From: Candidatus Krumholzibacteriota bacterium
GTDB lineage: Bacteria; Krumholzibacteriota; Krumholzibacteriia; Krumholzibacteriales; Krumholzibacteriaceae
Direction: 5' to 3'
Length of the DNA: 64,000 nucleotides
Assembly (NCBI GenBank): GCA_016933255.1
Contig: JAFGBF010000015.1
Span: forward strand, 79,725-143,724
Under the pieces are notes generated by a model, which was given only the letters and a program-made list of their open reading frames with translations, had not been told where the DNA came from and made no database searches. A program made the translations under genes and the position numbers. Shown here piece after piece: positions 9,570 through 42,242 of the stretch; the stretch's first letter is position 1, and each line of letters begins with the position of its first letter.

Positions 9570-10142
9570 ATGTCTATCAAGGGAACAGAGACTGAAAAAA
9601 ACATTCTGAAAGCGTTTGCGGGGGAGTCGCAGGCGAGAAACCGTTACACCTATTTTGCCTCCCAGGCAAAAAAAGAGGGTTATGTCCAGATCTCTTCGAT
9701 CTTCGAAGAGACAGCCGATCAGGAAAAAGAACACGCAAAACGTCTATTTAAACTTCTTGAAGGCGGAGAGATCGAGATCACCGCGGGTTTTCCTGCAGGA
9801 GTAATCGGGAAGACTGAAGAGAACCTGGCGGAGGCTGCCGGAGGAGAAAATCACGAATGGACTACAATGTATCCGGGCTTTGCGAAAGTGGCCGCTGCGG
9901 AAGGGTTTGATCACATCGCAAAGATCTTCGAAGCGATAGCAGTCGCGGAAAAGCAGCATGAGAAACGTTATAAGGATCTGATGGATAATATCAATTCCGG
10001 GCGCGTTTTCAAACGTGAGGGCGCGGTCGTCTGGCGCTGCCGGAATTGCGGTTATCTGGAAGAGGGAACGGAAGCGCCTGAAATATGTCCGGCATGTGCC
10101 CATCCGAGAGCCCACTTCGAGATCCTTGGAGAGAACTGGTAA
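9570..10142 (+). CDS. rbr: Rubrerythrin.
   Basis: Ferritin-like di-iron domain with E..H motifs, plus a C-terminal rubredoxin-like CxxC...CxxC (WRCRNCGY...CPACAHP). Confidence 0.9.
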
Positions 10143-22562: not shown

Positions 22563-22577
22563 TTGTGCCCCTTCCAG

Positions 22578-26170: not shown

Positions 26171-26212
26171 TCTTCCTCCAGTGGTTTGATAAAGCCCGGG
26201 ATATTTAAAATG

Positions 26213-27097: not shown

Positions 27098-27786
27098 TCC
27101 TCGTTTCTTTGCTCTACAGGCGATGCTGATTTCAGGGCTGACATTATATCGGGGCTTATTCTTTCGATGAATCTCAACATCGTTTTTTCGGTCTTTTCGT
27201 CGCCTCCCGGCCTAACGCCTGTAGAAAAGCGGATAAACGACGCAGCCTGGGGGCGGGAAAGAAGTGTGTTCTTCATCTGATGATATTTCAACGAAAATTC
27301 ATCGGGGATGGCTTTACCGTTCATACTGAACCAGTAGATGACCAGCCTGTGGGATTTCCCGTCTGTTATTACCAATCGCTTGACGCTTTCCAGCTCATTG
27401 TTGAGATTTATCTCGATCCGGTCTTCCTTTATGATATCCCAGCCGGCACCAGGGTAACAATGTTTTGGAGAATGGATCTGCGAATTTTCCTGCTGCCGGG
27501 CGAAATACCCGAGAAAGAGTTCTATCTTTATCCCCGTTTCTCCGGTATATGAACGTACAAGCGTTGTATCTGCTCCCAGAACCCTCAGAGATTCGATCCC
27601 GATATAATAGTCATCGGAGAGATACGATCCCGTCTCTGCCGGTATGAGGCTGAAATCCGGCAAAGGAGCCTCTTCAATATCTCTTTTACGCAATCGGTGC
27701 GTATAGATCGTCAGCAATAGGAGTATTACAACAATGATGACCAGGCTGTTCAGTTTTATTTTATCCATTTCAATATCCTGATACAA
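27094..27786 (-). CDS. epsI: Exosortase-associated EpsI-family protein.
   Basis: N-terminal TM helix then a periplasmic domain. Overlaps the exosortase gene end; the likely true start is ATG 27768 (MDKIK). EpsI is canonically adjacent to exosortases. Confidence 0.55.
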   Translation of the reverse strand: MYQDIEMDKIKLNSLVIIVVILLLLTIYTHRLRKRDIEEAPLPDFSLIPAETGSYLSDDYYIGIESLRVLGADTTLVRSYTGETGIKIELFLGYFARQQENSQIHSPKHCYPGAGWDIIKEDRIEINLNNELESVKRLVITDGKSHRLVIYWFSMNGKAIPDEFSLKYHQMKNTLLSRPQAASFIRFSTGVRPGGDEKTEKTMLRFIERISPDIMSALKSASPVEQRNED

Positions 27787-28610
27787 AGAAGAAGCAGTAG
27801 GAGCCCGGCTGCAAAGACTATCAAGCCTGAAATCTCATGAATCGTTCCATCAGCAAATTCGGGTCCTATCGTGTAGGCTCCCAGTGCTGTTACAGTCAGG
27901 CGGATCGCATTTGCTGCTATCGCTACAGGTATCGATAACGCCACGAGAATGACGTTTTTCGTTTTAGAAAATCCGGAAAAAATCGTAAGAATAACAGCGA
28001 TCGTAACCATAGTCATAAGGGAACGCAGTCCGCTGCAGGCGGCGACTACTTCCAGGGTATATCCGGGAAGATGGAGTATATTGCCTTTTCTTATGACGCT
28101 TACTCCGGTTGACTGGAGGATATAAGTGCTTAACCTGGCGCTGAAAAGCTGCATAGGGAAGGTGAGTCTGTAGTAAATGATATATGGCAAAGGAACAGCC
28201 AGCACCAGAAAGAGGACAGGGAAGGCGACAATTCTGAAGATCCCCGATCCCATAAGAAAAAGAACGCTTCCCAGTATAAGGAGCGGAAAAGATATGCGGG
28301 ATGAAAAAAGCTCTGAAGCTGCCGTGCCGGCTACAAGCAGCAGAGCTGATACAAATATTATTAAAAGCCCCGTATAATAGTATCCTCCATCTGGATTTTT
28401 TCTCAGTTCCCTGCGCCGTTTCCAGAGAATAAAAACCGAGACGACAGGGATAACGATCCCGTGCTGATAATTCGGGTCATCTATCCATTGCCTGAACAGG
28501 CTGGTAATGACAGGGGAATACATTACGGATATCAGAACCAGACTCATGCCGAGCAGTATTCTTTTAAGGAGCAGAGTGCTGTTCCCCTCTTGCCTGGATA
28601 TATCGGACAA
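27756..28610 (-). CDS. xrt: Exosortase (EpsH/Xrt family transpeptidase).
   Basis: 284 aa, about 8 TM. Conserved active-site motif VVAACSGLRSLMTM (Cys and Arg). TTG start with an AAAGGAG RBS. Confidence 0.8.
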   Translation of the reverse strand: MSDISRQEGNSTLLLKRILLGMSLVLISVMYSPVITSLFRQWIDDPNYQHGIVIPVVSVFILWKRRRELRKNPDGGYYYTGLLIIFVSALLLVAGTAASELFSSRISFPLLILGSVLFLMGSGIFRIVAFPVLFLVLAVPLPYIIYYRLTFPMQLFSARLSTYILQSTGVSVIRKGNILHLPGYTLEVVAACSGLRSLMTMVTIAVILTIFSGFSKTKNVILVALSIPVAIAANAIRLTVTALGAYTIGPEFADGTIHEISGLIVFAAGLLLLLLCIRILKWIK

Positions 28611-28703
28611 CCTGTCTCCTTTATTACGATACGACTTAAGTACTGTAGAATCTTAAAGGGTGCTGCCCCGCGTTGGCAAGAAGAATGAGCCGGTCAGACT
28701 CCG

Positions 28704-28740
28704 CAATAAAAAAACGGACGCAGGTGATTCTGCGTCCGTT
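28704..28740 (-). terminator. Strong rho-independent terminator between the PEP-CTERM substrate genes and the exosortase.
   Basis: Perfect 11-bp stem AACGGACGCAG/CTGCGTCCGTT with a 6-nt loop. On the minus strand it is followed by TTTTTTTATT. Confidence 0.75.
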
Positions 28741-28767
28741 CGAGGCCTGCAAGAAAAAGAAGTGTAA

Positions 28768-29475
28768 TCACGTTTTCTTTTTCTTTCTCAGAAGAGGAGT
28801 TATCCCGAGAAGTCCCAGGCCCAAAAGGCTGAGTGTGCCAGGTTCAGGAACCGCAAAACAACTTGAATCGTGGGAATTGGGGCTGACATAGCATTTACCG
28901 TTTGAATCCATCCCTATCGCGTCAAAGTTTACATAATCGAACCCGCTGACAACGATATCGAGTAACACTTCATCTCCCCAACCCGGTTCATGGATCCATC
29001 CTTCTTCGTAATGCCACGCCTTTGCCATAGAGTTATTTATTCTTCCGGCATCATAAAAATTGAAATTTTTGATGCTCGGAAGCATAGTCTTCACATACCA
29101 GTCCGGAGCGGCCGCAGCCAGTCCGGGGTCGCCGTAGTTGTAGAATGTGTTGATCTCGATTCCGTTGATCCATACAGTCCCGGATTGTCCTGTCGGAGTA
29201 TTTATGACGACAAAGACATCCATATAATCATACGCCGGGGGAGAGGTCACCAGATCTATAGATGGAGTCACTTCGGGAAGTGTTTCCCAGTACCCGACAA
29301 CTTTCAGCTCAAAATTGGCTGATGTAGAGATCCATGAGTCCTCATCCTCGAGGGCATAATTTGCGTAGTAGTCAGAGCCTGTAATATAGGTCTGAAGCCT
29401 TGGGACCGCTGAGGCAGAATCGGCAATTAGAGACCCGGCCAATACCGCTACGGTCAGAAGTAAAATCTTTTTCAT
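28768..29475 (-). CDS. PEP-CTERM sorting-domain protein, paralog B.
   Basis: Signal peptide MKKILLLTVAVLAGS. C-terminus VPEPGTLSLLGLGLLGITPLLRKKKKT (PEP motif, TM helix, basic tail). GGAGG RBS before ATG 29475. Confidence 0.85.
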   Translation of the reverse strand: MKKILLLTVAVLAGSLIADSASAVPRLQTYITGSDYYANYALEDEDSWISTSANFELKVVGYWETLPEVTPSIDLVTSPPAYDYMDVFVVINTPTGQSGTVWINGIEINTFYNYGDPGLAAAAPDWYVKTMLPSIKNFNFYDAGRINNSMAKAWHYEEGWIHEPGWGDEVLLDIVVSGFDYVNFDAIGMDSNGKCYVSPNSHDSSCFAVPEPGTLSLLGLGLLGITPLLRKKKKT

Positions 29476-29516
29476 TCGTATCCTCCGCACACAGTTTATA
29501 GTAATCAGCATTATCA

Positions 29517-30230
29517 TTATTTTTTCTTTCTCAGAAGAGGAGTTATCCCGAGAAGTCCCAGGCCCAAAAGGCTGAGCGTGCCAGGTTCAGGAACAGGATA
29601 GAAAGCTGTCGCATCGCAATCCCACGGATTGGTGTAGGTCACGCCTCTCGCGTCGAGTCCTATAGCGTCAAAATGTGTCCAGGAGAATCCCTTGGTCACG
29701 ACTTTAAAATCGATTTCCTGGCCATGTCCGGGAAGCTGAGGTGTACCGTCAATGTGGTCATAATAGTACGCCTGATGCTGGTTGTCGAGACCACCCTCAA
29801 TCTCATAGAAATTGAACTTTCCAAAGAGAGCCGGAGGAGCAATCCGCAGATACCACGCAGGGTTTGTTTCGTCAGGCACCGCATCGCAGTAGTTATAGAA
29901 AGTGCTGATCTCCACTCCGTCTATCCAGACTGTCCCCGACTGGCACATCGGGACGCTGATCGCGATCCAGGTTCTCATCTGATCACGTTCCGGATAAGCT
30001 GAGCCCACATTCAGAGGGGAGTCCGGATTAATGTCCTCTTCCCAGTACCCCACGACCCTCAGGTCGAATTCCTGCGAATATGTGACAAACGAATACTGGT
30101 CGAGCAGGCTGTGGAATTGTTCGTATTCTGAACCAACTATATAGGTCTGGAGCCTGGGGACCGCTGCGGCAGAGCCGGTAAAGAGCGCCAGAACAAGCAA
30201 AATGCCGGCAAAAGAAGTGACTTTCTTCAT
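29517..30230 (-). CDS. PEP-CTERM sorting-domain protein, paralog A.
   Basis: Signal peptide MKKVTSFAGILLVLALFTGSAAA. Identical C-terminal VPEPGTLSLLGLGLLGITPLLRKKK. Shares internal motifs with paralog B (VPRLQTYI, TVWI.G.EI.TFYNY). Confidence 0.85.
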   Translation of the reverse strand: MKKVTSFAGILLVLALFTGSAAAVPRLQTYIVGSEYEQFHSLLDQYSFVTYSQEFDLRVVGYWEEDINPDSPLNVGSAYPERDQMRTWIAISVPMCQSGTVWIDGVEISTFYNYCDAVPDETNPAWYLRIAPPALFGKFNFYEIEGGLDNQHQAYYYDHIDGTPQLPGHGQEIDFKVVTKGFSWTHFDAIGLDARGVTYTNPWDCDATAFYPVPEPGTLSLLGLGLLGITPLLRKKK

Positions 30231-30298
30231 ATTTTTCTCTCTCAGGTGTCGGAATCGGTTATAATAAGCGAAATTATCCTATCTATGCCGGTAGTACC

Positions 30299-30313
30299 GC
30301 AATCTGCGTGCCA
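30299..30313 (-). promoter_or_regulatory. Sigma-54 (RpoN) promoter driving the PEP-CTERM gene pair.
   Basis: The minus strand reads TGGCAC-gcaga-TTGC, a perfect match to the -24/-12 consensus TGGCAC-N5-TTGC. It sits about 70 nt upstream of the ATG at 30230. Confidence 0.75.
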
Positions 30314-30393
30314 TTTTTGAAATCATTTGTATCATGTTATATAACAACATGTTATTGGTCTGCTCTATTGTTTCTGAAAGGGAGCCGGCAAAA

Positions 30394-30429
30394 GTGTAAA
30401 AGATGCCGACAGTCAGGCACCTTTTACAC
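30394..30429. promoter_or_regulatory. Inverted repeat GTGTAAAAG-N18-CTTTTACAC. Candidate enhancer (UAS) for the sigma-54 promoter and/or terminator hairpin of the upstream gene.
   Basis: Perfect 9-bp arms with a nested TGCC/GGCA. It lies 80-115 bp upstream of the -24 element, across an AT-rich bendable spacer, and about 25 nt downstream of the stop of the 30452..31054 gene. Confidence 0.5.
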
Positions 30430-30451
30430 CGTATGCCAGATGATCTTGGGG

Positions 30452-31054
30452 TCAGCGGCTTTTTCGGGTTCTTGTCGATCCAAGCGATCCGAACGAGGAA
30501 CTTCTGCTTCTTCTCGTGCTTGAACTGAATCTTGATCCAAAACCTGGGCTGTTCCTCATCGAGCCGCGGCGTACGCTGGTGTTTATGTTGATATTTACAG
30601 GGTTTACGGTCTGGCGCCGATTTCCTCCCCGGACTATGCTCGAGGGCGAAGCCATCATCCCCGTGCCTCGAGAAGCTCCATTTCTCGTCCTGCTTGTCTG
30701 AGGCATAAAGGAGCCGGATATTCCTTTATGGGTATAGCCGGAAGCTTTGAGATCCGCACTCCATCCGGTCCTCTGCTGGCGCATATTTCTGTTTCCTGCC
30801 AGCGCTGCCGGCCTTCTGAACTCTTGAGATGACCTTTCGATCCCGGTCGACCAGCCGGCAGGCCCGGTTTTTCTTGAACTGATTACAGATGAACGGGTCA
30901 CAGCTTTCTGCCAGTCTCTGTCGACTGCATCGCTCTGGTTTTTAGCCCACTTTGAGAATTCACTGTTTTCCTTTGCGCAGGCATCGGTGCCGGCAAAGAA
31001 CAACGGATTTATTACAATAACCAGCAACACTGCGGTTGCGATCAAGTAACGCAT
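30452..31054 (-). CDS. Secreted, Arg/Ser/Gly-rich low-complexity protein of unknown function.
   Basis: Clear signal peptide (MRYLIATAVLLVIVINPLFFAGTDA). The rest is basic and disordered (SRFSSSTRRSRSSSFGSLGSTRTRKSR). Preceded by a near-consensus sigma-70 promoter. Confidence 0.5.
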   Translation of the reverse strand: MRYLIATAVLLVIVINPLFFAGTDACAKENSEFSKWAKNQSDAVDRDWQKAVTRSSVISSRKTGPAGWSTGIERSSQEFRRPAALAGNRNMRQQRTGWSADLKASGYTHKGISGSFMPQTSRTRNGASRGTGMMASPSSIVRGGNRRQTVNPVNININTSVRRGSMRNSPGFGSRFSSSTRRSRSSSFGSLGSTRTRKSR

Positions 31055-31170
31055 GACAACTTCCTAACATCTATCTGATACGGATATACAAAGAATGCGG
31101 ATTTAGAAAACACCAACTGTACGCAGAGTCTTAGAAGAGGAGAGAATCTTCTAATTCGTTTACTACAGAA

Positions 31171-31199
31171 ATTGTACCATACCTCGCCGGATATGTCAA
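31171..31199 (-). promoter_or_regulatory. Sigma-70 promoter (TTGACA-17-TACAAT) for the 30452..31054 gene.
   Basis: The minus strand reads TTGACAtatccggcgaggtatggTACAAT. Leader of about 110 nt to the ATG. Confidence 0.6.
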
Positions 31200-31337
31200 C
31201 CTCACGAAGATATCGGCGAGATTGAATATTATCTTTTCCGACTTTTTTCGGTACCATGATCCGATACTGAATAAGGAGCGCGCGCTTTTCAGCGGTCATG
31301 CTAAAATCATAAAAAAATATATCCGGGACATCCCCCC

Positions 31338-31366
31338 TTGACTTTTATTATGACTCCGATTATGTT
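31338..31366 (+). promoter_or_regulatory. Sigma-70 promoter (TTGACT-17-TATGTT) for the downstream glutamate dehydrogenase.
   Basis: Hexamers with 17-nt spacing read directly from the sequence. About 40 nt upstream of the ATG, which has an AAAGGAG RBS. Confidence 0.55.
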
Positions 31367-31407
31367 GCCTGCGTCAGGTAGCTCTTAATCGGAAAGGAGA
31401 ATTAATA

Positions 31408-32694
31408 ATGACTGATAAGTCGTTTAATCCCTTTGAGATGGCTCAGACGCAGTTCGACAGCATCGCGGACAAGCTTGACCTGGATGAAGGAACGAGAGAA
31501 CTTCTGCGATATAACCAGAGAGAGTATCATGTGAGCATTCCGGTGCGCATGGATGATGGCACTGTTAAAGTATTCAGGGGTTTCAGAGTTCAGCATAATG
31601 ATTCAAGAGGCCCGGCAAAGGGAGGTATTCGTTTTCATCCGATGGAGACTATAAATACCGTGCGGGCCCTGGCTATGTGGATGACATGGAAGTGCGCTGT
31701 CGTGGATATTCCTTTAGGCGGGGCAAAGGGCGGAGTCATATGCGATCCGCATAACCTGAGTGCCCGGGAACAGGAAGGGATATGCAGGGGGTGGATCCGC
31801 CAGTTATCCAGGGATCTCGGTCCCCTGAACGATGTTCCGGCACCGGATGTCATGACAACCCCCCAGCATATGCTATGGATGCTGGACGAATTCGAGACTA
31901 TCAGGGGGTCCAAACTCCCCGGGTTTATTACGGGCAAGCCAGTGGGTATGGGCGGTTCGATGGGCAGGACCGAGGCTACCGGCTATGGCGTGATATTCAA
32001 CGTCCGTGAGGCTCTGAAGGAACTGAAGATCCCTCCAGCAGATACAACCGCGAGCATTCAGGGTTTTGGCAATGTCGCGCAATACGCCATTGAACTATAT
32101 AACCAGATATGGGGAAAGGTCGTTTGCGTATCCTGCTGGGACCAGAAGGATCAGATTTCCTATTCTTTCAAGAAACTTGACGGTATCGATCTCGTAGAAT
32201 TAAAAGGTATTACCGATCGTTTTGGGGGCATCGACAAGAAGAAAGCTGAAAAATCAGGCTATGAGATCCTCCCGGGAGATGCCTGGATAGAACAGGAAGT
32301 CGATATTCTCATCCCCGCTGCGCTTGAAAACCAGATTACCGGGGAAAATGTCGGGAGAATCAGCGATAAGGTAAAGATTATCGCCGAAGGGGCCAATGGC
32401 CCGACGACGCCGGATGCCGACAAGGAAATATCAAGCCGAAAGATTTTTATGATTCCCGATCTTCTGGCTAATGCCGGAGGCGTAACGTGCAGTTATTTTG
32501 AGCAGGTTCAGTGTAACATGAACTATTTCTGGGAGAAAGACGAAGTTCTTGGTAAGCTCGACACCAAGATAACAAACGCGTTCAACGCCGTAAACGGACT
32601 GGCCAAATCCAAAAAACTGTATATGCGTGACGCTGCTTATGTTATAGCTGTGGGCCGGGTAGTCGAAGCTTGCAGGGAACGTGGTTGGGTCTAA
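31408..32694 (+). CDS. gdh: Glutamate dehydrogenase (hexameric, about 430-aa class).
   Basis: Catalytic lysine motif IPLGGAKGGVICDP. Rossmann GFGNVAQYA. 428 aa. Confidence 0.9.
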   Translation: MTDKSFNPFEMAQTQFDSIADKLDLDEGTRELLRYNQREYHVSIPVRMDDGTVKVFRGFRVQHNDSRGPAKGGIRFHPMETINTVRALAMWMTWKCAVVDIPLGGAKGGVICDPHNLSAREQEGICRGWIRQLSRDLGPLNDVPAPDVMTTPQHMLWMLDEFETIRGSKLPGFITGKPVGMGGSMGRTEATGYGVIFNVREALKELKIPPADTTASIQGFGNVAQYAIELYNQIWGKVVCVSCWDQKDQISYSFKKLDGIDLVELKGITDRFGGIDKKKAEKSGYEILPGDAWIEQEVDILIPAALENQITGENVGRISDKVKIIAEGANGPTTPDADKEISSRKIFMIPDLLANAGGVTCSYFEQVQCNMNYFWEKDEVLGKLDTKITNAFNAVNGLAKSKKLYMRDAAYVIAVGRVVEACRERGWV

Positions 32695-32926
32695 AACCGG
32701 ATCGGCCCCCGTTCAAGCCTGAGAAACGTATAAATCAAGGGCTCAAGTCGAGGTTCCTTTCGCTGCAGTGGAACATGCAATGTCAATGACGGCTTGACAG
32801 ATCCCGGCATATTGGATCAAGGTTCGCGAAAAGGGTGTTCGGGTTTTTATTTGCCGGCTCTCTTATTGTTATTCGAGGAAGACTGGTTTCGATATTCTTT
32901 GCGGTTCCAGCAAGAGGTAACCTCTG

Positions 32927-34693
32927 ATGGCTAGGAACAAATACAGCCCTCACCAAGGTTCGCTGGTGCCGTTCGACCGCGATTTTTTCTCCAGTGCCCA
33001 CAGATTTACATATATCGGAAAAGGGGAACTTGGGGGAAAGGCTCACGGACTGGCGGAAATCAAGGGTGTAATCGAATCGGGGATCATCGACAGGTTTTCT
33101 CCGGATATTTCCGTGACAATACCCACGTTAACAGTTATTACCACAGAATATTTCGATCTGTTCATGAAACAGAATGACCTCTACGATATAGCCTACTCCG
33201 GCCAAAGCGATGATCTGATAGCGCACGCTTTTCAGAATGCTCACATGCCTGTACAGATTGTGGGTGATTTGAGAGCTTTGGTACAACAGGTCCATACACC
33301 TCTGGCCGTACGTTCTTCGAGCATGCTCGAGGACGCCATGTTTGAACCGTTTGCCAGTGTCTACGGAACTAAAATGATACCTAACAACCAGCCTGACGTT
33401 GATTCGCGGTTCAGAAAACTGGTCGAAGCCGTCAAATATGTGTATGCGTCGACCTTTTTCAAGGCGGCTGGAAATTATATGAAGGCAACGCATCACTCCA
33501 CCCTGGACGAAAAGATGGCGGTTATTATACAGGAAGTAGTCGGTTCAAGGTGGGGGGAGCGATTCTATCCCCAGGTATCAGGCGTAGTACGCTCATACAA
33601 TTTTTATCCGTTCGGAAACGCTTCGCCGGAAGATGGAGTCGTGGATCTTGCCCTGGGTCTTGGGAGGATGATTGTCGACGAAGGAGTTGCGTGGTCGTAT
33701 TCTCCCTCCTTTCCAAAAGCCTGCCCGCCGTTTAATTCCGTAAGCGATATGCTGAAAAACACCCAGACGCGGTTCTGGGCGGTCAATATGCAGGCTCCCG
33801 AGGCTTACAACCCGATTGACGAAATAGAATATATGGAAAAATTCGATCTGGCGGCGGCAGAGTACGACGGCTCGCTCGCCTTCATAGCTTCGACGTTCGA
33901 TTCACAGGACGGCAGAATCTCCGCCGGCATCGGTGTCAAGGGGCCGAGGGTCATCGATTTCGCGCCGATTCTCAAATCCAGGATGATACCGCTGAATGAA
34001 CTTCTGGAAACACTTCTCAAGACGAGCGAAGACCGTTTGGGTACGAGGGTCGAGATCGAGTTCGCCGTGCGTTTGGACAGAAAGGAATGTTCTCCGGCCG
34101 AGTTCGGGTTCCTTCAGATAAGACCGATGGTCGTGGCAGAAGCGGAAGTCGATCTGAGCCACGATGATTTAAGAGCAGATAACGTTCTGGCCGCGTCGGA
34201 GACTGTTCTTGGCAACGGCGTTCTCGATACGGTCAAGGATATTGTATTTGTCGATCCGGAACGGTTCGATGTGAGTAGATCGAGGGAAATTGCAGAGGAA
34301 TTGGAGAAATTCAACGAGACGCTTGTAGGCTCAAACAGGCCTTATCTTCTGATAGGATTCGGCAGGTGGGGGACTTCGGATCCATCTTGCGGAATACCCG
34401 TGGCATTTGATCAGATATCCGGAGCGAAGGTGATAATCGAATCTTCTCTCCCGAACCTGACTTTCCAGCTCAGTCAGGGGTCTCATTTTTTCCACAACGT
34501 TACGAGCTTCAAGATTTTTTACTTCTCTCTGCATCACAGGGGCGAGTACGACGTCAACTGGGAATGGTTAAAAAAACAAAAAGTGGTAAGTGCGACTGAG
34601 CACCTGAAGCATGTCGAGCTTGCTTCTGCCCTCACGGCCAAGGTCGACGGCAGGAACGGCAGGGGAGTCATATATTATGAAAAAGAAGAATAA
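32927..34693 (+). CDS. PEP/pyruvate-binding (PPDK_N, ATP-grasp-like) domain protein lacking phosphohistidine and PEP-utilising domains.
   Basis: GGKAHGLAEI and VRSSSMLEDAMFEPFASVYGT are typical of the nucleotide-binding N-domain of PEP synthase/PPDK/rifampin phosphotransferase. No TSHAA-type swivel-domain motif was found. Confidence 0.65.
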   Translation: MARNKYSPHQGSLVPFDRDFFSSAHRFTYIGKGELGGKAHGLAEIKGVIESGIIDRFSPDISVTIPTLTVITTEYFDLFMKQNDLYDIAYSGQSDDLIAHAFQNAHMPVQIVGDLRALVQQVHTPLAVRSSSMLEDAMFEPFASVYGTKMIPNNQPDVDSRFRKLVEAVKYVYASTFFKAAGNYMKATHHSTLDEKMAVIIQEVVGSRWGERFYPQVSGVVRSYNFYPFGNASPEDGVVDLALGLGRMIVDEGVAWSYSPSFPKACPPFNSVSDMLKNTQTRFWAVNMQAPEAYNPIDEIEYMEKFDLAAAEYDGSLAFIASTFDSQDGRISAGIGVKGPRVIDFAPILKSRMIPLNELLETLLKTSEDRLGTRVEIEFAVRLDRKECSPAEFGFLQIRPMVVAEAEVDLSHDDLRADNVLAASETVLGNGVLDTVKDIVFVDPERFDVSRSREIAEELEKFNETLVGSNRPYLLIGFGRWGTSDPSCGIPVAFDQISGAKVIIESSLPNLTFQLSQGSHFFHNVTSFKIFYFSLHHRGEYDVNWEWLKKQKVVSATEHLKHVELASALTAKVDGRNGRGVIYYEKEE

Positions 34694-37600
34694 TATTACT
34701 GACGATCTTATCAAGTCTTTTCTCGAGAGGGAGAAGGAACTCAAATGCCTATATCAGATCGAGGAGATCCTCAAGAAGTCAAACAGTGATCAGGATCAGA
34801 TTTACAGCAGGATTCTCGAGGCAATTCCGCTTGGGTTCCAGTATCCCGAAGTCTGCAGTGTCAGGATAACGATCGGAACCGAGATAATCGAACCGAAGGG
34901 TCTCACCGAGACCAGATGGGTTTTGAAAACCGACATTCCGGTGCAGGAAAAGAAGGCCGGTGAAATCAGCGTCTATTATTCAAAGGAAATGCCGAGGGAA
35001 GACGAAGGCCCTTTTCTCAAACACGAAAAAAGGTTGCTGGAAGCAATTGCCGACCGGCTCGGCAGTTCTATCCTGCACAAACGGCTGAGAGACGCCGAAG
35101 CGGTGGAACTCGGCCAGGAGCCCGAGGAAGAATCACATGAATGGCAAGTAGTGTTAAACCTCCTGAGGCATACGGACAAGAATCTTTTTATAAGTCTTTC
35201 CGAAAGAATGTTGAATCATCTCAGCTGGACTGGAATATCGGAGATAGAGAATATCGAACTGGACTTCAGTAAGGTACAATTGGATGCAGATGAAGGTCTG
35301 AACAGGGAAAGCAACAGACCCGACAAGAGGCGAAAGGTCGAACTGTCAGAGACCGTGTGCGAACAGATATTTAAAGTCGCCGCAAAACACTACACCGACC
35401 AGACCATACTGGATTATCTGCAGAGATGGATTGCGGACGACAAGCTGAAATTCCTGGCTCATATTTCTAACCGCAATTTTAACTTGTCGGAGATCATCGA
35501 CGCTATAAGGCGCTATCGGGATATCGCCCGCGAGGGCATCGAGCTTTCTCCCGTCGCGAGGGAAGGTGTTTTAGTCTCGCTGATAAGAAGATTCTTTTCC
35601 AGTCAGCTGAACTACATCAGGTTGGCCAAAAATTATGTTAGAAATAATGATTTTTTTGATGTCGTTGACAGGATAATTTTTACCAAGGACAGCCACGGAA
35701 GGTTGGGAGGCAAAAGTGCGGGCCTTTTCCTGGCAGAAGCGATAATAAAAAAATCCGAAGACTCCAGCGATCTTTTGAGGTCGGTTAAATTTCCCAGAAG
35801 CTGGCATATCACCTCGGATGTTATTCTGGGATTCCTTAAATACAATAATATGGATGAGGTGGTGGAACAGAAATACAAAGAGATAAACCAGATCCGCCAG
35901 GAATATCCCTATGTCATCCAAACCTTTAAAAATGGCCATTTCCCTCCGGAAGTCGTGCAGGGGCTTTCGATGGTTCTCGATGAATTCGACGAAAGGCCAT
36001 TGATAGTAAGAAGTTCGAGTCTTCTCGAAGACAGCCTGGGCGCCGCGTTTTCAGGCAAATACAAGAGCCTTTTTCTGGCAAATCAAGGGAGCAAACAGCA
36101 TAGGCTCGAAGCGCTTATCGACGCGATTGCGGAGGTCTATTCATCTATCTTCGGTCCTGATCCGATAGAGTACAGGGCGGAACGGAACCTCCTCGATTTC
36201 GCCGAGGAGATGGGTATCATTATTCAGGAGGTCGTGGGTAAAAAGATCGGAGATTATTTCTTACCGGCTTTTGCGGGTGTTGCCTTCAGCAGGAACGATT
36301 TCAGATGGTCTCCCAGAATAAAGAGGGAAGACGGCCTCATGCGTCTCGTTCCCGGACTAGGGACACGTGCAGTGGACAGGATAAGCGAGGATTATCCTGT
36401 CCTTATCGCCCCCGGGCAGCCGGGGTTGAGGGTAAATGTGACAGCCGAAGAAATCGTATACTATTCTCCCAAGAAAATAGATGTAATAAATTTGAAAACA
36501 AACTCCTTTGAGACGATCGATATTAAGGATCTGCTGAAGAAGCATGGGCCTGAGCTGCCGCTCGTAAATAAGATAATATCCAAATTTGAAGACGATCATT
36601 TAAAAAAGCCTCTTGCAATGAGCGTTGATTTCGAGAAGGATGACCTCGCGGTCACTTTCGATGGGATAATCAATGATTCAGACCTGATCAAGCAGGTCAA
36701 CGGACTTCTGAAACTGCTTGAAAACAAACTGGAGTCATCGGTTGACATAGAGTTCGCCCATGACGGGGAAGATTTTTATCTTCTTCAGTGCAGGCCGCAG
36801 AGTTTCAACGAAGACTCCGCTCCAGCGGCCATTCCCAAGAATATCCCTGATGAGAAGGTCGTATTTTCGGCTCACAAGTATATCTCTAACGGCCGCGTTC
36901 CCGACCTTACTCACATCGTTTATGTAGATCCCCAGAAGTACTCGGAACTGGGCAGCAAGGAGGATCTCATAGCTGTCGGCAAGGCTGTTGGGGAACTGAA
37001 CAAACTTTTACCAAAACGGCAGTTTATCCTTATGGGGCCGGGGCGATGGGGAAGCCGGGGAGATATCAAACTCGGTGTCAGTGTTTCCTATTCAGATATT
37101 AATAACACCGCGGTACTGGTGGAAATCGCGAAGAAAAAAGGGAACTATATGCCTGATCTTTCATTCGGCACACATTTTTTCCAGGATCTTGTCGAAGGTC
37201 AGATCCGATATCTTCCGCTTTATCCAGACAACGTTAAGAACACGTTTAATGAAAGGTTCCTGTTGGGTTCGAAAAGTATACTTGCGGATATTCTGCCTAA
37301 ATATTCCTCACTCTCGGATGTGATAAGGCTGATTGACGTTCCGAAGGTCACCGGTGGGCTCGTTTTCAGGGTTCTGATGAACGCTGATTTAGGTGAAGCA
37401 CTGGGTATTCTGGATGAAGCTGGAAAAGAAACAGACGTCGATGACGTAGAGATCGTAGATATTGAAATTCCGTCAAAAAAGTACTGGTTATGGAGATTGC
37501 GCATGGCTGAGCAGATCGCATCTGAACTCGATCCGGATCGTTTCGGAGTTGCGGGTTTCTATGTTTTCGGAAGCACGAAAAATGCCACGGCGGGATTGAA

Positions 37601-37856
37601 GAGCGATATCGATATAATGCTGCATTTTCAGGGCACAAAGCAGCAGCGAAAGGATCTTATGACATGGCTGGAAGGATGGAGCCTCTGCCTGGATGAAATC
37701 AATTACTTAAGGACCGGCTACAGGATCGGCGGTTTGCTCGATGTCCATATTATTACAGATGATGATATCAGGGACAGAACGAGTTATGCTGTAAAGATCG
37801 GGGCAGTTACTGACGCCGCCAGGGAAATCCCGATGAAGGGGAAAGAACGGGCCTAG
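34677..37856 (+). CDS. Large multidomain protein: N-terminal domain of unknown function, a PPDK_N-like ATP-grasp domain, and a C-terminal Pol-beta-superfamily nucleotidyltransferase domain.
   Basis: GGKSAGLFLAE and VRSSSLLEDSLGAAFSGKYKS are the PPDK_N motifs. C-terminal FYVFGSTKNATAGLKSDIDIMLHF is an NTase GS...D.D motif. Shares a GRWG...G(S/T)HFF block with the upstream paralog. ATG 34677 has an AGGGGAG RBS and overlaps the upstream stop by 17 nt. Confidence 0.65.
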   Translation: MKKKNNITDDLIKSFLEREKELKCLYQIEEILKKSNSDQDQIYSRILEAIPLGFQYPEVCSVRITIGTEIIEPKGLTETRWVLKTDIPVQEKKAGEISVYYSKEMPREDEGPFLKHEKRLLEAIADRLGSSILHKRLRDAEAVELGQEPEEESHEWQVVLNLLRHTDKNLFISLSERMLNHLSWTGISEIENIELDFSKVQLDADEGLNRESNRPDKRRKVELSETVCEQIFKVAAKHYTDQTILDYLQRWIADDKLKFLAHISNRNFNLSEIIDAIRRYRDIAREGIELSPVAREGVLVSLIRRFFSSQLNYIRLAKNYVRNNDFFDVVDRIIFTKDSHGRLGGKSAGLFLAEAIIKKSEDSSDLLRSVKFPRSWHITSDVILGFLKYNNMDEVVEQKYKEINQIRQEYPYVIQTFKNGHFPPEVVQGLSMVLDEFDERPLIVRSSSLLEDSLGAAFSGKYKSLFLANQGSKQHRLEALIDAIAEVYSSIFGPDPIEYRAERNLLDFAEEMGIIIQEVVGKKIGDYFLPAFAGVAFSRNDFRWSPRIKREDGLMRLVPGLGTRAVDRISEDYPVLIAPGQPGLRVNVTAEEIVYYSPKKIDVINLKTNSFETIDIKDLLKKHGPELPLVNKIISKFEDDHLKKPLAMSVDFEKDDLAVTFDGIINDSDLIKQVNGLLKLLENKLESSVDIEFAHDGEDFYLLQCRPQSFNEDSAPAAIPKNIPDEKVVFSAHKYISNGRVPDLTHIVYVDPQKYSELGSKEDLIAVGKAVGELNKLLPKRQFILMGPGRWGSRGDIKLGVSVSYSDINNTAVLVEIAKKKGNYMPDLSFGTHFFQDLVEGQIRYLPLYPDNVKNTFNERFLLGSKSILADILPKYSSLSDVIRLIDVPKVTGGLVFRVLMNADLGEALGILDEAGKETDVDDVEIVDIEIPSKKYWLWRLRMAEQIASELDPDRFGVAGFYVFGSTKNATAGLKSDIDIMLHFQGTKQQRKDLMTWLEGWSLCLDEINYLRTGYRIGGLLDVHIITDDDIRDRTSYAVKIGAVTDAAREIPMKGKERA

Positions 37857-38719
37857 ATAAGTTCACGGCTTACTTCGTCAATCTTTTTCAGGTCGAATCT
37901 TACTAGGGCGAGTTCCGGCCCGTCATGCGCGGCCGATATTGCAAGCGTCCTTCCTATATGGCATTTCCAGGAACCCGTGATTCGGGCTGATTCATGAATG
38001 TGGCCGTGCATCGTCAGCAATGGCTGTTTTTCCTCGATGAACCTGCCTATGGCTATGCTTCCGACATGAACATCCAAAGGGGCATGATCGACCTTCATGC
38101 CGTCCAGCGCGGCTCGGTCGAGACTTGTCCCGTAGGGAGGAGCATGGAAGAGAAAAATGGCGTTTTCCAGGGCAAGGCCTTCCGTCAGTTTTTCAAGATC
38201 GGCTCTGATCGTACCGTATCTCAACTCGTCGATATCCGCTGGTGTCGACCGGTTCCCTTCCTCCGGTGAAATGCAACCCGGATCTACATACCGGGAGATA
38301 TCATACTTTTCCCAGTCTTTAAGATGAAAAGGTGTCGGAGGTATATAGGAGTATCCAAAAACACGCCGTCCGAGGTGTTCGATGTTTGTTCCGTGAATAT
38401 AGCTCAAAAGGCCTTCTTTCGAGGCCTCGATCATCGATTGCTCATCATAACGCCCGTCGTCGTTTCCCAGGATTGCGAATATCCTCGGGTACGATTTGCC
38501 GAGGTTGTCACGGAGGATCTCCAGCTTCTTGAAAAGGTATCCGTTCAGAAATCCTTCGTGTCCAAAATCCGAGCTTAGCGCATGAGGCAGGATATCTCCG
38601 CCGATAAATATCGTCCCGGGCTTTTCTCTCTCCAGCGCGGAGAATAATCTGGTGAATCTTTCCCTCTTTCCGTGAAGGTCGGAAATAAAAAAACATTTCG
38701 TGTTCTGTCTCAGACTCAT
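37853..38719 (-). CDS. Calcineurin-like metallophosphoesterase.
   Basis: Motifs D.H, GD, GNDD/GNHE-like and GH.H (ISDLHG, GGDILPH, ILGNDDG, MHGHIH). Confidence 0.75.
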   Translation of the reverse strand: MSLRQNTKCFFISDLHGKRERFTRLFSALEREKPGTIFIGGDILPHALSSDFGHEGFLNGYLFKKLEILRDNLGKSYPRIFAILGNDDGRYDEQSMIEASKEGLLSYIHGTNIEHLGRRVFGYSYIPPTPFHLKDWEKYDISRYVDPGCISPEEGNRSTPADIDELRYGTIRADLEKLTEGLALENAIFLFHAPPYGTSLDRAALDGMKVDHAPLDVHVGSIAIGRFIEEKQPLLTMHGHIHESARITGSWKCHIGRTLAISAAHDGPELALVRFDLKKIDEVSRELI

Positions 38720-38861
38720 CTTGAAATTATCCTCGCTGTTCCGGCCGGTAAATCGATGCGCTATAGCAGAGCCGAATCATTAGTGGCAAAAGAATCGTGA
38801 CTATTTCCCTTCTGAAAATGAATAAGTTCGGAAGATGGAAAGGGTCCGAGGGAAATATTTT

Positions 38862-40190
38862 TCAGCATTTATCCAGATATCTGTCTATCTCCCAATCAGT
38901 GACGGCTGACTTGAATTCCTGTGACTCCAGTTCCTTGGTGTTGGCGTATTTAGTCGTAAGATCTTCGCCGAGAAGATCTCTCATCAGATCGCTTTTTCTA
39001 AAAAGGAGAACAGCTTCCTCGAGGGTCTGCGGCAGAATATCTATACCCATTGCTTTCAGTTCGCTGTCAGTCTTCTCATAAACGCTGTCTTCCATCTCGG
39101 GGGCCAGTTCCATCCTGTTCTTTATTCCATCAAGGCCGGCTTTAAGGATCGCAGCGAAAAGAAGGTATGGTGAGGCACTCGGATCGGGACACCTCAGTTC
39201 CGCCCTGATCGAGGATTCCCTTTCCTTCGCGAAATGGGGGATACGGACAAGGGAAGACCTGTTTTTACTTCCCCAGCAGATATAGACCGGTGCTTCATAC
39301 CCCGAAACAAGGCGCTTGTACGAGTTTACTGTAGGGTTGGTCAGAGCGCACATCCCTTTTATGTTGGCGAGGAGCCCGGCTATAAAATTCTTGGCCAGGG
39401 GAGAGAGCCTGTTGGGGTCTTCGGCGTCATAGAAGGCAGGGGTGCCGTCTGTTCCGAAAAGGGAACAGTGCACATGCATTCCGTTGCCGGCCTTGCCGTA
39501 GATAGGTTTGGGCATGAATGAAGCTATCAGTCCCCTTTTGTGAGCTATCGATTTTATGATCTTTTTCAGAATGACCACATTATCTGCCGTACTCAAAGCG
39601 TCGCCGTATCTGAACCCTACTTCGTGCTGCCCGACTCCGACCTCGTGATGGGCCCTTTCTGAATCGATCCCGAATACCTTCAAAGCCTGCATGATCTCTT
39701 TTCGGATATCGCTGCCGATATCCTTGGCCGAGGAGTCGAAATATGATCCCGTATCGAATTCCGGAGTGGTGAAACCACCGTTTTCTGTCTTCTTGAAGAG
39801 GTAGAATTCTACCTCCGGGCCGACGTTGAACAGATATCCCATATCGCGGGCTTCGGCGATGATCTTTTTAAGAACGGCTCTGGGGTCTCCGCTGAAGAGG
39901 TTTCCGTCTGGAGTATATACCTCGCACATGAATCTTGCGGTTTTTCTGCTGTCATCGTCTCCTGGAAGAACTGCGTATGTATCCAGCTCCGGCTTGAGGT
40001 ACATATCACTTTCTTTGGTCCTTGCAAATCCTCTTATCGAAGAACCGTCGAACCAGATCCCCTTGTCAGCGGCTACAGCAAGGTTCTCGATCGGGATCTC
40101 GATCGATTTCAGTACTCCGAATATGTCGGTAAATTCCAGCTCTACAAAGACGACTCCGTCTGACATCGCCTTTTTTATCGTATCGTTCAC
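38862..40190 (-). CDS. glnA: Glutamine synthetase (short GSI-alpha-like, 442 aa).
   Basis: KPIYGKAGNGMHVHCSLF ATP-binding signature. GTG start with a GGAGG RBS. Confidence 0.85.
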   Translation of the reverse strand: MNDTIKKAMSDGVVFVELEFTDIFGVLKSIEIPIENLAVAADKGIWFDGSSIRGFARTKESDMYLKPELDTYAVLPGDDDSRKTARFMCEVYTPDGNLFSGDPRAVLKKIIAEARDMGYLFNVGPEVEFYLFKKTENGGFTTPEFDTGSYFDSSAKDIGSDIRKEIMQALKVFGIDSERAHHEVGVGQHEVGFRYGDALSTADNVVILKKIIKSIAHKRGLIASFMPKPIYGKAGNGMHVHCSLFGTDGTPAFYDAEDPNRLSPLAKNFIAGLLANIKGMCALTNPTVNSYKRLVSGYEAPVYICWGSKNRSSLVRIPHFAKERESSIRAELRCPDPSASPYLLFAAILKAGLDGIKNRMELAPEMEDSVYEKTDSELKAMGIDILPQTLEEAVLLFRKSDLMRDLLGEDLTTKYANTKELESQEFKSAVTDWEIDRYLDKC

Positions 40191-40362
40191 CAGGCTACCT
40201 CCAGAATCCAGTCGGCCTCTCGGGGCGGGTCATATCTGTTTGAAATATCTTTTCCAAGGCTTGATCTTGAAAGTCTTACTCTATGGAGTTTTTTTTCTTA
40301 TGTCTATGAAAATTTTCGGGGGCCGCAGGCTGATAAGACTGCAGCCCCCGTCTCAAGAAAAT

Positions 40363-41223
40363 CTAGAGGAAACTGTATGAAAGGCCGAGAGCGACAGACT
40401 GGTAGATCTGACGCCTCTTGGATATGTCTCTGTCATAAAATATCCTGAAATTAAAATTCACGTTCAGGTATTTGGAGATCTTCGTCGTAAAGACGTTATC
40501 CCAGTTGAGATCGGTCTCATTGAAAGCTTCAAGCGTGGAAAAAAGCTCCAGTTTTGAAGTGAACAATGAATTTTCAGAGATCTTCCAGTTAACATCCGTC
40601 ACCAACTCGGCGCCGATCTCGTTTTTCGTCTTTTCGATGCCGTCAGTATCGGGATCATCCGCGTAAGGCACGGGGTAATCGCTGGTAATAGTCTGTTTCA
40701 TCGCGGCACCGAGCCTGGTCGCCACAATATCGTTCGGCTTATATCCCAGGCCTACGCTTTCCCTGAAATACCCCGGGTCCATAAATGCCGAGATCTGTGT
40801 CTTAGGTTCGGTATCATAGTTATAACCTGCCGCAAACTGGGTCTCGCCGTTAACGGCGGCGTAAGGATTGACGTGGAGATTCAGCTTGTATGTAAATACG
40901 CTCTCGAGTTTTATCTCGTCTATCGATTTGCGTTGATCCTCATCTCCGGTCTTCGTCGACCCGTATCCGAACTTGCCGGAGTTCGCCCAGTTGGTCTTTT
41001 CCTGGTCGTTAACGAATTTGAAGTTAAGAAAAAATTGCCAGGCCAGCGAATTTTCACCGCCCTGCGCCCAATTATCAAAACTCGTCTGCGTCAGATTGGC
41101 CCCGCCGACCATCTCTTTTTGCCAGCCGTATTCCGGCTCCTTCGCGGATTCTTCCTGAGCAGAGAGACAACTGCTCAAAAAACCCAGAATTAGAAACGCA
41201 AGTACAACAATTCTCAGCTTCAT
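40363..41223 (-). CDS. Putative outer-membrane beta-barrel protein.
   Basis: Signal peptide (MKLRIVVLAFLILGFLSSCLSAQ). Alternating amphipathic strands rich in Y/G/N. C-terminal aromatic end (...SYSFL). Confidence 0.4.
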   Translation of the reverse strand: MKLRIVVLAFLILGFLSSCLSAQEESAKEPEYGWQKEMVGGANLTQTSFDNWAQGGENSLAWQFFLNFKFVNDQEKTNWANSGKFGYGSTKTGDEDQRKSIDEIKLESVFTYKLNLHVNPYAAVNGETQFAAGYNYDTEPKTQISAFMDPGYFRESVGLGYKPNDIVATRLGAAMKQTITSDYPVPYADDPDTDGIEKTKNEIGAELVTDVNWKISENSLFTSKLELFSTLEAFNETDLNWDNVFTTKISKYLNVNFNFRIFYDRDISKRRQIYQSVALGLSYSFL

Positions 41224-41290
41224 CCGATGCTCCTTACTACTTGAAAGTACAAAAAACTACAAAACGATTCCTTGCCCTGCGAAGGGCGGT

Positions 41291-42112
41291 TTAAGCCTCA
41301 TGCTTGTACAAATGCACGTCCTGCTGCGGGAACGGAATAGATATCCCTGCCTTGTCAAATTCCAGTTTCACCTTTTCGTGAATATCGAAATACAATCCCC
41401 AATAATCAGCACTGCCGCACCAGGGGCGAACGACGAAATTGACCGAGCTGTCACCCAATTCGGAAACTGCGACCGTAGGCGCGGGATCGTCCAGCACCCG
41501 GCTGTCGCCTTTTAGGATCGCTTCCAGCGTTTCCTTTGCCTTTTTGATGTTGTCTGAATATGCGATACCGAAGGTCATATCGATGCGCCGGATCGATTCA
41601 GTTGAGAAGTTTGTAATACTTCCGTTTGATAATGCCCCGTTGGGAATTATGATCGTCTTGTTGTCCGGTGTCTTCATGATCGTATTGAAAATCTGAATCT
41701 CCTTAATTGTTCCTGTATGACCGCCTGCATCGACAAAATCACCGACTTTATAAGGCTTGAACAGCAATATCAATACCCCTCCGGCAAAGTTTGCAAGGCT
41801 GCCCTGCAGCGCAAGGCCGACAGCCAGTCCGGCAGCGCCCAGGATCGCGATAAACGAAGTCATCTGGATGCCTATCATCGAGGCGACGCTTATCACGAGC
41901 ATTACCTTGAGAATGATCCTGATCAGGCTCAACAAAAAGCTTCGCAAAGACAGATCGATCTTGCTCCGCTCCATCCCCTTGGAGAATGTCTTGCCTAATA
42001 ATCTGATGATCCAGAGACCTATTACCAGGGTCACCATGGCCATCAGTAATTTCGGGCCATAGCTCATCAAAAGCTCCATAGCTTTGTCCGAGTAAGTCTG
42101 CAAACCTTCCAT
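41291..42112 (-). CDS. mscS: Small-conductance mechanosensitive channel, MscS family.
   Basis: Three N-terminal TM helices, then the conserved beta-domain PYKVGDFVDAGGHTGTIKEIQIFNTIMKTPDNKTIIIPNG. Confidence 0.85.
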   Translation of the reverse strand: MEGLQTYSDKAMELLMSYGPKLLMAMVTLVIGLWIIRLLGKTFSKGMERSKIDLSLRSFLLSLIRIILKVMLVISVASMIGIQMTSFIAILGAAGLAVGLALQGSLANFAGGVLILLFKPYKVGDFVDAGGHTGTIKEIQIFNTIMKTPDNKTIIIPNGALSNGSITNFSTESIRRIDMTFGIAYSDNIKKAKETLEAILKGDSRVLDDPAPTVAVSELGDSSVNFVVRPWCGSADYWGLYFDIHEKVKLEFDKAGISIPFPQQDVHLYKHEA

Positions 42113-42242
42113 GCGAGAAACCTCCGTGCCTGAAATGAAGTGAGTCTTCTTAAGAAACGCCGATTTAACCGCTCTCGGGTCAAGAAATCACAAACGATTA
42201 TTATACGCAAGTCATTTTTAGGGTGTTACGATCGAGGTCCGA

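Follow-up and report, generated by a model that had tools for sequence, protein, structure and literature searches.

Introduction

Dikinases of the phosphoenolpyruvate (PEP) synthase (PpsA) and pyruvate, phosphate dikinase (PPDK) type, together with rifampin phosphotransferase (RPH), use an ATP-grasp domain, PPDK_N, to load a phosphoryl or pyrophosphoryl group from ATP onto a histidine of a swivelling domain. Here we describe two overlapping genes, A and B, from a 64,000-nucleotide stretch of a Candidatus Krumholzibacteriota genome (contig JAFGBF010000015.1, positions 79,725 to 143,724; hereafter the window, in whose own positions coordinates are given), which encode proteins with a dikinase-type core beside a gene for glutamate dehydrogenase (GDH). 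A and B resemble PpsA and PPDK in their homologous PPDK_N ATP-grasp domain, in which all nucleotide- and Mg-binding residues are present, and in the domain that follows it, a probable swivelling beta/beta/alpha fold with an essential-looking histidine at the N-terminus of a helix. They depart from these enzymes in the absence of a TIM barrel, the insertion of a GRWG loop, the addition of a sensor and a nucleotidyltransferase (NTase), and the pairing with GDH.

The ATP-grasp domain has its best structural matches in RPH (5hv3) and in HpeI (9goj), a subunit of the two-component enzyme HpeHI. In HpeHI, PpsAB and CreHI the ATP-grasp and His-carrier functions reside on two polypeptides, and a phosphatase acts later in the same system (PMC12167813). 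These enzymes and RPH have a rifampin-binding-like small-molecule domain and an ATP-grasp in one subunit only, whereas A and B each carry both an ATP-grasp and a His domain, and neither has an acceptor-binding domain. A different likeness is to EI-Ntr (PtsP), whose N-terminal GAF domain binds glutamine and 2-oxoglutarate and which is tied to nitrogen and carbon status: an N-terminal GAF sensor is joined to a phosphohistidine carrier domain, an arrangement that B may share. Unlike B, EI-Ntr takes its phosphate from PEP via a TIM barrel, passes it to NPr, and has neither an NTase nor a linkage to GDH.

GlnE, the glutamine synthetase (GS) adenylyltransferase, and GlnD, the PII uridylyltransferase, are Pol-beta-fold NTases whose reversible modification of a nitrogen-assimilation enzyme or regulator responds to 2-oxoglutarate and glutamine. 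They offer a functional analogy, sharing only the NTase fold with B, which would act on GDH instead of GS or PII and adds an ATP-grasp/His core. MntA, the antitoxin of type VII toxin–antitoxin systems, AMPylates the protein HepT and has, like B, a minimal NTase core of ~100 aa with a GS-x10-DxD motif; however, B scores only 17 bits against the NCBIfam MntA model (cutoff 60), has no HEPN partner, and carries its NTase fused to a 930-aa sensor/dikinase body. In concept the locus also recalls AceK, PDRP and PSRP, dedicated enzymes encoded beside, and reversibly modifying, one central metabolic enzyme, although their folds are unrelated and they join writer and eraser in one polypeptide, whereas here a separate phosphoesterase co-varies with A.

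Results

Gene A (32927-34693, + strand) encodes a 588-aa dikinase-core protein, an ATP-grasp followed by a C-terminal His-bearing domain, and gene B (34677-37856, +) a multidomain protein of 1059 aa. Upstream lies gdh (31408-32694, +; 428 aa), the module's conserved partner gene, and downstream a divergent metallophosphoesterase-like gene (37853-38719, -; 288 aa), a candidate eraser, which is convergent with B such that the two stop codons share 4 nt; a type I GS gene (38862-40190, -) follows. A first-pass annotation, made from the sequence alone, had named these same flanking genes. The window has a match at 100% identity to a protein from a Candidatus Krumholzibacteriota metagenome-assembled genome. 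We conclude that gdh, A, B and the phosphoesterase gene are one functional cassette on the 2-oxoglutarate/glutamate step, with B as its core. The GDH is a canonical family-II hexameric enzyme, matching Pfam ELFV_dehydrog_N (E 1e-52) and ELFV_dehydrog (E 9e-66), with Thermococcus GDH (1euz, E 5e-118) as its best PDB match. The alignments of B with its homologues start at the ATG at 34677, at which M1 is conserved and which sits 9 nt downstream of GGGGAG. Because the TAA stop of A occupies 34691-34693, the genes overlap by 17 nt, exactly as had been proposed. The longest open reading frame (ORF) for B begins at 34611; that start (34611-34676, 66 nt) would add 22 spurious residues and lengthen the overlap from 17 to 83 nt.

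B is widespread and its neighbourhood is conserved. When GTDB species, each represented by one genome, were scanned with a degenerate pattern, at least 597 proved to encode B, at 51-89% identity. Neighbourhood statistics were drawn from the best 80 of these species' loci (L001-L080; 51-72% identical), which represent more than 10 phyla overall, with labels including Krumholzibacteriota, Zixibacteria, Ignavibacteria/Bacteroidota, several classes of Acidobacteriota, Planctomycetota, Calditrichota, Gemmatimonadota, Myxococcota, Spirochaetes, Cloacimonadota, Fermentibacteria, Eisenbacteria and Delongbacteria. Neighbours were sought by tblastn with the flanking proteins of the window, and a locus was evaluable where enough flank was present. 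Of the 71 evaluable loci, 70 had GDH next to B, in almost every case immediately upstream and in the same orientation, and A lay directly upstream of B in ~60 loci, at a gap of -13 to +105 nt. The metallophosphoesterase was directly downstream and convergent in 41 of the 52 evaluable loci with A and in none of the 10 without it (Fisher p = 3e-6), the presence of A being taken from the tblastn-based table rather than from a noisier ORF-based classification. Since B genes without A have A-containing nearest relatives in at least six lineages, A and the phosphoesterase have been lost together repeatedly. Thus the question the first-pass annotation had raised, whether the pair travels with gdh or with the phosphoesterase, is answered by both. 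The four genes remain clustered even where they are rearranged (L021, L041, L045 and L090), and A and B also occur as fusion proteins of 1631-1647 aa, such as P0077, in which A (53% identity) precedes B.

Little else travels with the cassette. Tblastn placed GS in 0 of the 80 loci, and we reject it as a member of the module; the DUF3078 protein and a small upstream ORF were never near B, and an MscS gene was near it once. All-against-all clustering of the flanking ORFs of the 80 loci revealed no further conserved neighbours, whether regulators, receiver proteins, pathway enzymes or transporters. Conservation among the cassette GDHs (L001-L080) is unusually high: their median pairwise identity across phyla is 73%, against 53% for A, B and the phosphoesterase. 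This would fit either a constraint imposed by an interaction or horizontal transfer of the cassette as a unit; a mirror-tree correlation between GDH and B (r = 0.43) is uninformative.

Distant relatives, whose loci we found by exact sequence look-up, show that the partner enzyme can be exchanged. Among the five most divergent B relatives that we examined, four (N-terminal regions 28-33% identical) follow not GDH but a cluster of glutamate synthase (GOGAT) type, consisting of a ~1060-aa NuoF/GltD fusion, a small 2Fe-2S/4Fe-4S ferredoxin and a stand-alone Glu_synthase FMN domain (PF01645), joined at two of these loci (L086 and L093) by a NuoE-like gene; no glutamine-amidotransferase gene is called in the recovered part. 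These clusters, at L082 1-4085, L086 1-5860, L093 485-6868 and L095 2-1435, may encode an ammonia-dependent or electron-bifurcating glutamate synthase. Because the Glu_synthase cluster carries out the same 2-oxoglutarate-to-glutamate conversion with a non-homologous enzyme, its substitution for GDH links the module to this metabolic step. The fifth relative, P0299 (L084), has neither a GDH nor a Glu_synthase gene on its 6.5-kb contig.

Other relatives vary the architecture itself. L090 keeps all four genes with GDH and the phosphoesterase on the opposite strand, and L085 and L089 have split or extended forms of A and B. At L081, the gene after that for GDH encodes two REC-like domains, PPDK_N and a GRWG/GTHFF domain but no NTase, and a facing protein combines four GAF-like modules, a REC-like domain, PPDK_N and a GRWG/GSHFF domain; the NTase is therefore dispensable, and sensor plus core is the constant. 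At L093, an alkaline-phosphatase-family gene (9226-9710, -) is convergent downstream of the B-like gene, in the place of the metallophosphoesterase, so that a second, unrelated phosphatase is linked to the module. The core also recurs in signalling architectures away from GDH: two multi-sensor cores of 1378-1524 aa (P0356 and P0373; L091 62-5307 and L092 7001-11801) have a LuxR-type REC-like + GerE regulator 2-15 nt downstream and no GDH nearby. Aligned manually with NarL, the receivers of these regulators have T or V at the D59 position and lack D13/D14. Canonical His-to-Asp two-component pairing was rejected for the related cores on the ground that the adjacent LuxR regulators have such pseudo-receivers; core and regulator may instead form a non-canonical sensor/regulator pair.

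A and B share a catalytic core. Pfam PPDK_N (PF01326) matches A at residues 34-407 (E 4e-33) and B at residues 342-723 (35700-36845, +; E 3.5e-58), and A can be aligned with residues 323-849 of B (26% identity, E 2e-35), so that the shared region extends beyond the ATP-grasp through GRWG...G(S/T)HFF; both the paired PPDK_N domains and the common C-proximal block had been recognised in the first-pass annotation. The motifs GGK, VRSSSxLED, EIEF, LQxRP, GRWG and G(S/T)HFF are present and invariant in 42-45 homologues, as are the individual ATP-grasp residues K38, R129, E376/E378, Q397 and R399 of A and K346, R445, E692, Q704 and R706 of B. A Foldseek search of the PDB with an AlphaFold2 (AF2) model of B (overall predicted local distance difference test, pLDDT, 75) matched the ATP-grasp domain to RPH 5hv3 (E 2e-15), PEP synthase 2ols and HpeI 9goj, with E values from 2e-15 to 4e-10; a sequence search of the PDB with A returned nothing informative. 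Pfam found neither PEP-utilizers nor TIM-barrel families in A or B, and for the PEP-utilizers_C TIM barrel the sequence leaves no room, in agreement with the barrel's reported absence. More generally, no acceptor-binding domain, TIM barrel or rifampin-binding, was recognised in A or B by Pfam, NCBIfam or Foldseek. NCBIfam models of PEP synthase, PigC and RPH cover the ATP-grasp part only, at 15-52 bits against cutoffs of 500-1350.

The domain following the ATP-grasp carries the invariant histidine. In A it spans residues 408-588 (34148-34690, +), with a GFGRWG loop and the motif SQGSH520FFHN (His520 codon 34484-34486, +); the paralogous domain of B spans residues ~725-915 (36849-37421, +), with GPGRWGS and SFGTH833FFQD (His833 codon 37173-37175, +). 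The block GxGRWG...SxG[ST]HFF, including H520 of A and H833 of B, is invariant in 42-45 homologues, the motif residues of the B domain being invariant in 45, and several polar residues of the domain (R, D and E) are likewise invariant. Modelled alone from a joint A+B alignment, A residues 395-588 gave a pLDDT of 88.5 and a predicted template-modelling score (pTM) of 0.87, with the histidine as the first residue of a helix. Most other top matches of this model belong to the 'swivelling beta/beta/alpha' fold of SCOP, among them LD-carboxypeptidase, the PA and GroEL apical domains, LeuD/aconitase, putative cyclases, RraA-like proteins and the fumarase C-terminal domain. Foldseek with the A domain model gave no significant match, a PDB profile search with the C-proximal domain only chance matches (FNIP repeats and longin domains), and hhalign against a PpsA swivel alignment a probability of 0.07; no sequence similarity to PF00391 (GGxTSHAA) is detectable, SxG[ST]HFF standing in its place. 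On the models, we consider assignment to the swivelling beta/beta/alpha fold sound and membership of the phosphohistidine superfamily plausible but unproven. The earlier statement that A and B have no phosphohistidine swivel domain thus holds at the level of Pfam but is probably wrong at the level of fold, given the sound fold assignment and plausible superfamily membership: a cryptic His-bearing swivel-like domain is the probable reading of the models. In B the most conserved stretch, GRWG...GTHFF at residues 790-843 (~37044-37205), is also the least confidently modelled (pLDDT < 50), whereas its paralogous stretch in A, modelled alone, reaches ~90. The contrast may point to mobility of the domain or to a requirement for a partner.

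At its C-terminus B carries a minimal Pol-beta-type NTase (37482-37826, +). Residues 946-990 match NTP_transf_2 (PF01909) at 22.8 bits (cutoff 21), rising to 26.8 bits with the tail alone, and Foldseek matched the domain to AAD(9) 6xz0 and the Sulfolobus NTase 2rff. B has the hG[GS]-x9-13-Dh[DE]h signature of minimal Pol-beta NTases, a third carboxylate, and the expected order of secondary structure in the model. Its motif reads G965-S966-x10-D977-I-D979 with D1022 as third carboxylate, and all five named residues are invariant in 42-45 homologues; the NTase called in the first pass is therefore present, with a spacing of x10 rather than the x9 given there. Pfam and NCBIfam found no GlnE or GlnD_UR_UTase domain beside it.

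The N-terminus of B, previously described as ~330 aa of unknown identity, comprises a GAF-like sensor module (residues ~8-140; 34698-35096, +) and a linker region that is all-helical in the AF2 model (residues ~141-341; 35097-35699, +). Foldseek aligned the former with the GAF structures 3p01 and 6oei at a probability of 1.0 but an E value of only 0.04-0.07. Pfam gave no direct GAF or other family match to residues ~8-140; a paralogous tandem copy in P0242 does match PF01590 (1.2e-7). The linker was without match in Pfam and PDB sequence searches, and a PDB sequence search with the N-terminal domain led nowhere. A HMMER search of the whole library with B residues 1-335 recovered 7614 proteins, many with two to five tandem copies, among them Ser/Thr kinases, methyl-accepting chemotaxis proteins, hybrid histidine kinases, GGDEF or STAS proteins and other PPDK_N proteins; P0242, P0245, P0279, P0282, P0330 and P0354 are examples. 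From these sequence comparisons the ~130-residue module looks like an uncatalogued family of sensor domains, a building block of signalling proteins that escapes Pfam though it recurs thousands of times.

The phosphoesterase retains all metal-binding motifs. DxH, GD, GNDD, LFHxPP and HGHxHE are conserved in 38 homologues, with GNDD standing in for the calcineurin-like GNH[DE] and the remaining metallophosphoesterase motifs present. Its own profile matches are weak (Metallophos_2 and Metallophos_3, E 0.02-0.05; NCBIfam PRK09453 phosphodiesterase, 5.5e-6, below cutoff), its orthologues carry precomputed Metallophos matches, and a sequence search of the PDB returned nothing informative.

Discussion

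We suggest that the cassette is a signal-controlled, ATP-dependent phosphoryl- or nucleotidyl-transfer switch on the glutamate-forming enzyme encoded next to it, with the phosphoesterase as eraser, and would give this reading a little less than an even chance. The GAF-like module of B would sense a metabolite, with 2-oxoglutarate, glutamine or an energy-state signal as candidates. The PPDK_N domain of B would load phosphoryl or pyrophosphoryl from ATP onto H833 of the swivel-like domain, as PPDK, PEP synthase and RPH do with theirs, and the group would be handed to a protein rather than to a small molecule, most likely to the co-encoded GDH, whose activity might be raised or lowered. The NTase, whichever group it moves, would add a second, nucleotidyl modification or control the first; A, as a sensor-less paralogue of the catalytic core with H520, would act in complex with B; and the metallophosphoesterase would take the modification off. 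A His-phosphocarrier writer with an NTase is favoured by the sensor decoration, the absence of an acceptor-binding domain, the invariant catalytic residues, the A-B fusions and the co-inherited hydrolase, and a regulatory layout by the sensor fusions (one to four GAF-like modules, REC-like domains) and the pairing with transcriptional regulators, which are typical of regulators rather than pathway enzymes. The first-pass annotation had likewise proposed a nucleotidylation/phosphorylation writer with a phosphoesterase eraser acting on nitrogen assimilation. Linkage to gdh and to the phosphoesterase supports that proposal, from which GS should be dropped. We found no homologue of known function, and the linkage extends far beyond this genome; the writer/eraser idea therefore remains the best hypothesis.

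Several observations weigh against a protein-modifying switch. To our knowledge, characterised PPDK_N-family enzymes never phosphorylate proteins and all act on small molecules or glucans. The assignment of the His domain is at fold level, without backing from sequence or Foldseek. In the Glu_synthase-linked subfamily the ATP-grasp Arg/Gln are substituted: the LLQxRP motif is degenerate in P0291 and P0316 (LLQCSAQ and LLECQP), and P0291 has also lost GRWG (CPPLW) while its NTase motif is intact. Two Glu_synthase-linked members, moreover, end after the ATP-grasp, lacking His domain and NTase, and such truncated relatives of ~710 aa keep the enzyme linkage. Core catalysis is thus not universal, and to judge from these substitutions the ATP-grasp of this subfamily may be a pseudo-enzyme. 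A and the phosphoesterase are absent from ~18% of loci, and no fusion of A or B to GDH was seen among the proteins found by HMMER with the B N-terminus. Finally, recognition of the GDH surface by B would need retargeting to the unrelated Glu_synthase, for which a shared metabolite accounts more simply.

This last point leads to the alternative that A and B are a dikinase/nucleotidyltransferase for a small molecule, either a reactant or a cofactor of the 2-oxoglutarate/glutamate reaction; ATP-driven activation of 2-oxoglutarate, glutamate or a nicotinamide cofactor would be one example, and the phosphoesterase would complete the pathway. The known small-molecule dikinases have been summarised (PMC12167813), and phosphorylation followed by dephosphorylation has a precedent among them in HpeD, which acts after HpeHI in hydroxyphenylethanone catabolism (PMC12167813). 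Small molecules or glucans are the substrates of every characterised PPDK_N enzyme, the module accompanies two non-homologous enzymes with only their substrates in common, and the invariant R, D and E of the GRWG/HFF domain could form a binding site. We nevertheless regard this alternative as unlikely: there is no recognisable acceptor-binding domain; the GAF-like (one to four) and REC-like decoration and the transcription-factor pairing point to signalling; no further pathway enzyme or transporter is conserved nearby; the canonical GDH has no need of an activated substrate; and degenerate ATP-grasp residues occur in Glu_synthase-linked members. Somewhat less probable again is non-covalent regulation, in which B, alone or together with A, would attach to the GDH hexamer as an allosteric effector; the sensor, and the binding of ATP or autophosphorylation, would then serve solely as a conformational switch, and no group would pass to GDH. 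Control of bacterial GDHs by protein partners is well known (GarA, APRTh in Thermus, the interplay with GltC), the truncated and catalytically degenerate relatives retain their enzyme linkage, and the higher conservation of GDH (~73%, against ~53% for B) is compatible with a constrained interaction surface, but the ATP-grasp, His and NTase catalytic residues are all invariant in the GDH-linked family, and a phosphoesterase that is dedicated and co-inherited implies that somewhere a covalent adduct, phospho- or nucleotidyl, is formed.

It is improbable that the signalling enzyme has another target, a transcription factor, a global nitrogen regulator or a signalling nucleotide, with gdh merely a co-transcribed output. 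This would suit the multi-sensor cores directly upstream of LuxR-type pseudo-receiver regulators without GDH nearby, and the NTase fold does include second-messenger synthases; yet no conserved regulator gene accompanies the 80 GDH cassettes, the partner enzyme is exchanged for a functional analogue rather than lost, and a minimal NTase core of ~100 aa is too small for the known cyclic-nucleotide synthases. Two further identities we reject. Modification of an antibiotic or xenobiotic by an RPH-like phosphotransferase with an NTase of the aminoglycoside nucleotidyltransferase (ANT) type, raised as the alternative in the first pass, draws on RPH as the best structural match of the ATP-grasp and on AAD(9) as one match of the NTase. 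It is very unlikely, as the RPH model NF041857 scores 16 bits with A and 26 with B against a cutoff of 999, the Foldseek alignments to RPH span only the ~400 columns of the ATP-grasp, the rifampin-binding domain is absent, B has a sensor domain, and synteny with housekeeping GDH is strict in more than 10 phyla. That A or B is a genuine PEP synthase or PPDK, as the database names 'pyruvate, water dikinase' and 'pyruvate, phosphate dikinase' would have it, is barely credible: the PEP/pyruvate-binding TIM barrel is missing, and PEP_synth models score 25-52 bits, far below equivalog cutoffs of 598-740.

Returning to the covalent switch, its broader version is more speculative. It is conceivable, though we rather doubt it, that A and B are a new class of protein-directed His-phosphocarrier (dikinase-type) kinases which, with the NTase and the phosphoesterase, form a metabolite-sensing, reversible covalent switch on GDH or its GOGAT-like analogue, and at the same time that this switch is the glutamate-node counterpart of GS adenylylation by GlnE, widespread in Acidobacteriota, Planctomycetota, Ignavibacteria/Bacteroidota, Zixibacteria, Calditrichota, Gemmatimonadota, Krumholzibacteriota and others. 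Ammonium enters biomass at two points, of which GDH is one; in amino-acid fermenters GDH is a main exit point. We know of no dedicated covalent regulator of a bacterial GDH. In at least 597 species, for the most part abundant in the environment and little studied, this strongly conserved cassette links GDH to a phosphoesterase and to an ATP-grasp/His/NTase enzyme that carries a sensor. If the proposed post-translational switch exists, it would add a regulatory layer to nitrogen and carbon balance and put the PEP-synthase-type dikinase mechanism to a new biochemical use, in which the acceptor is a protein. All parts of the module belong to known superfamilies. The architecture and DUF5752 are not described in the literature we found, and no curated Pfam architecture, NCBIfam equivalog or PADLOC system contains the module, in line with the initial impression that no function had been described for it.

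Flanking genes and database names

Around the cassette, an Rfam scan of 29000-42000 found no RNA elements, and a promoter and terminator scan gave no more sites than shuffled sequence. A role in anti-phage defence (PDC-S09/PDC-S10) was rejected, the PADLOC matches covering only ~40-60 residues (E 1e-6) in a housekeeping context. Upstream of gdh, 21132-30230 (-) holds a cluster of an exosortase (EpsH), DUF3485 and two PEP-CTERM proteins, along with a TPR protein, a GAF-containing histidine kinase and a sigma-54 response regulator (PrsK/PrsR-like); it is not conserved beside the cassette in other genomes. Downstream of GS, 40363-44603 (-) encodes a DUF3078/DUF481 outer-membrane beta-barrel protein, an MscS channel and a C25 (gingipain-like) peptidase with a type IX secretion system (T9SS) sorting tail, genes without linkage to the cassette in other genomes.

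Homologues of B are named only generically or wrongly, as 'PEP/pyruvate-binding domain-containing protein' or 'pyruvate, water dikinase'. The JGI and NCBI names of P0017, P0022, P0028, P0008 and others are 'pyruvate, water dikinase' or 'pyruvate, phosphate dikinase', despite the absence of the PEP-binding domain. Such names can yield false PEP-synthase or gluconeogenesis calls in metabolic reconstructions from metagenome-assembled genomes.

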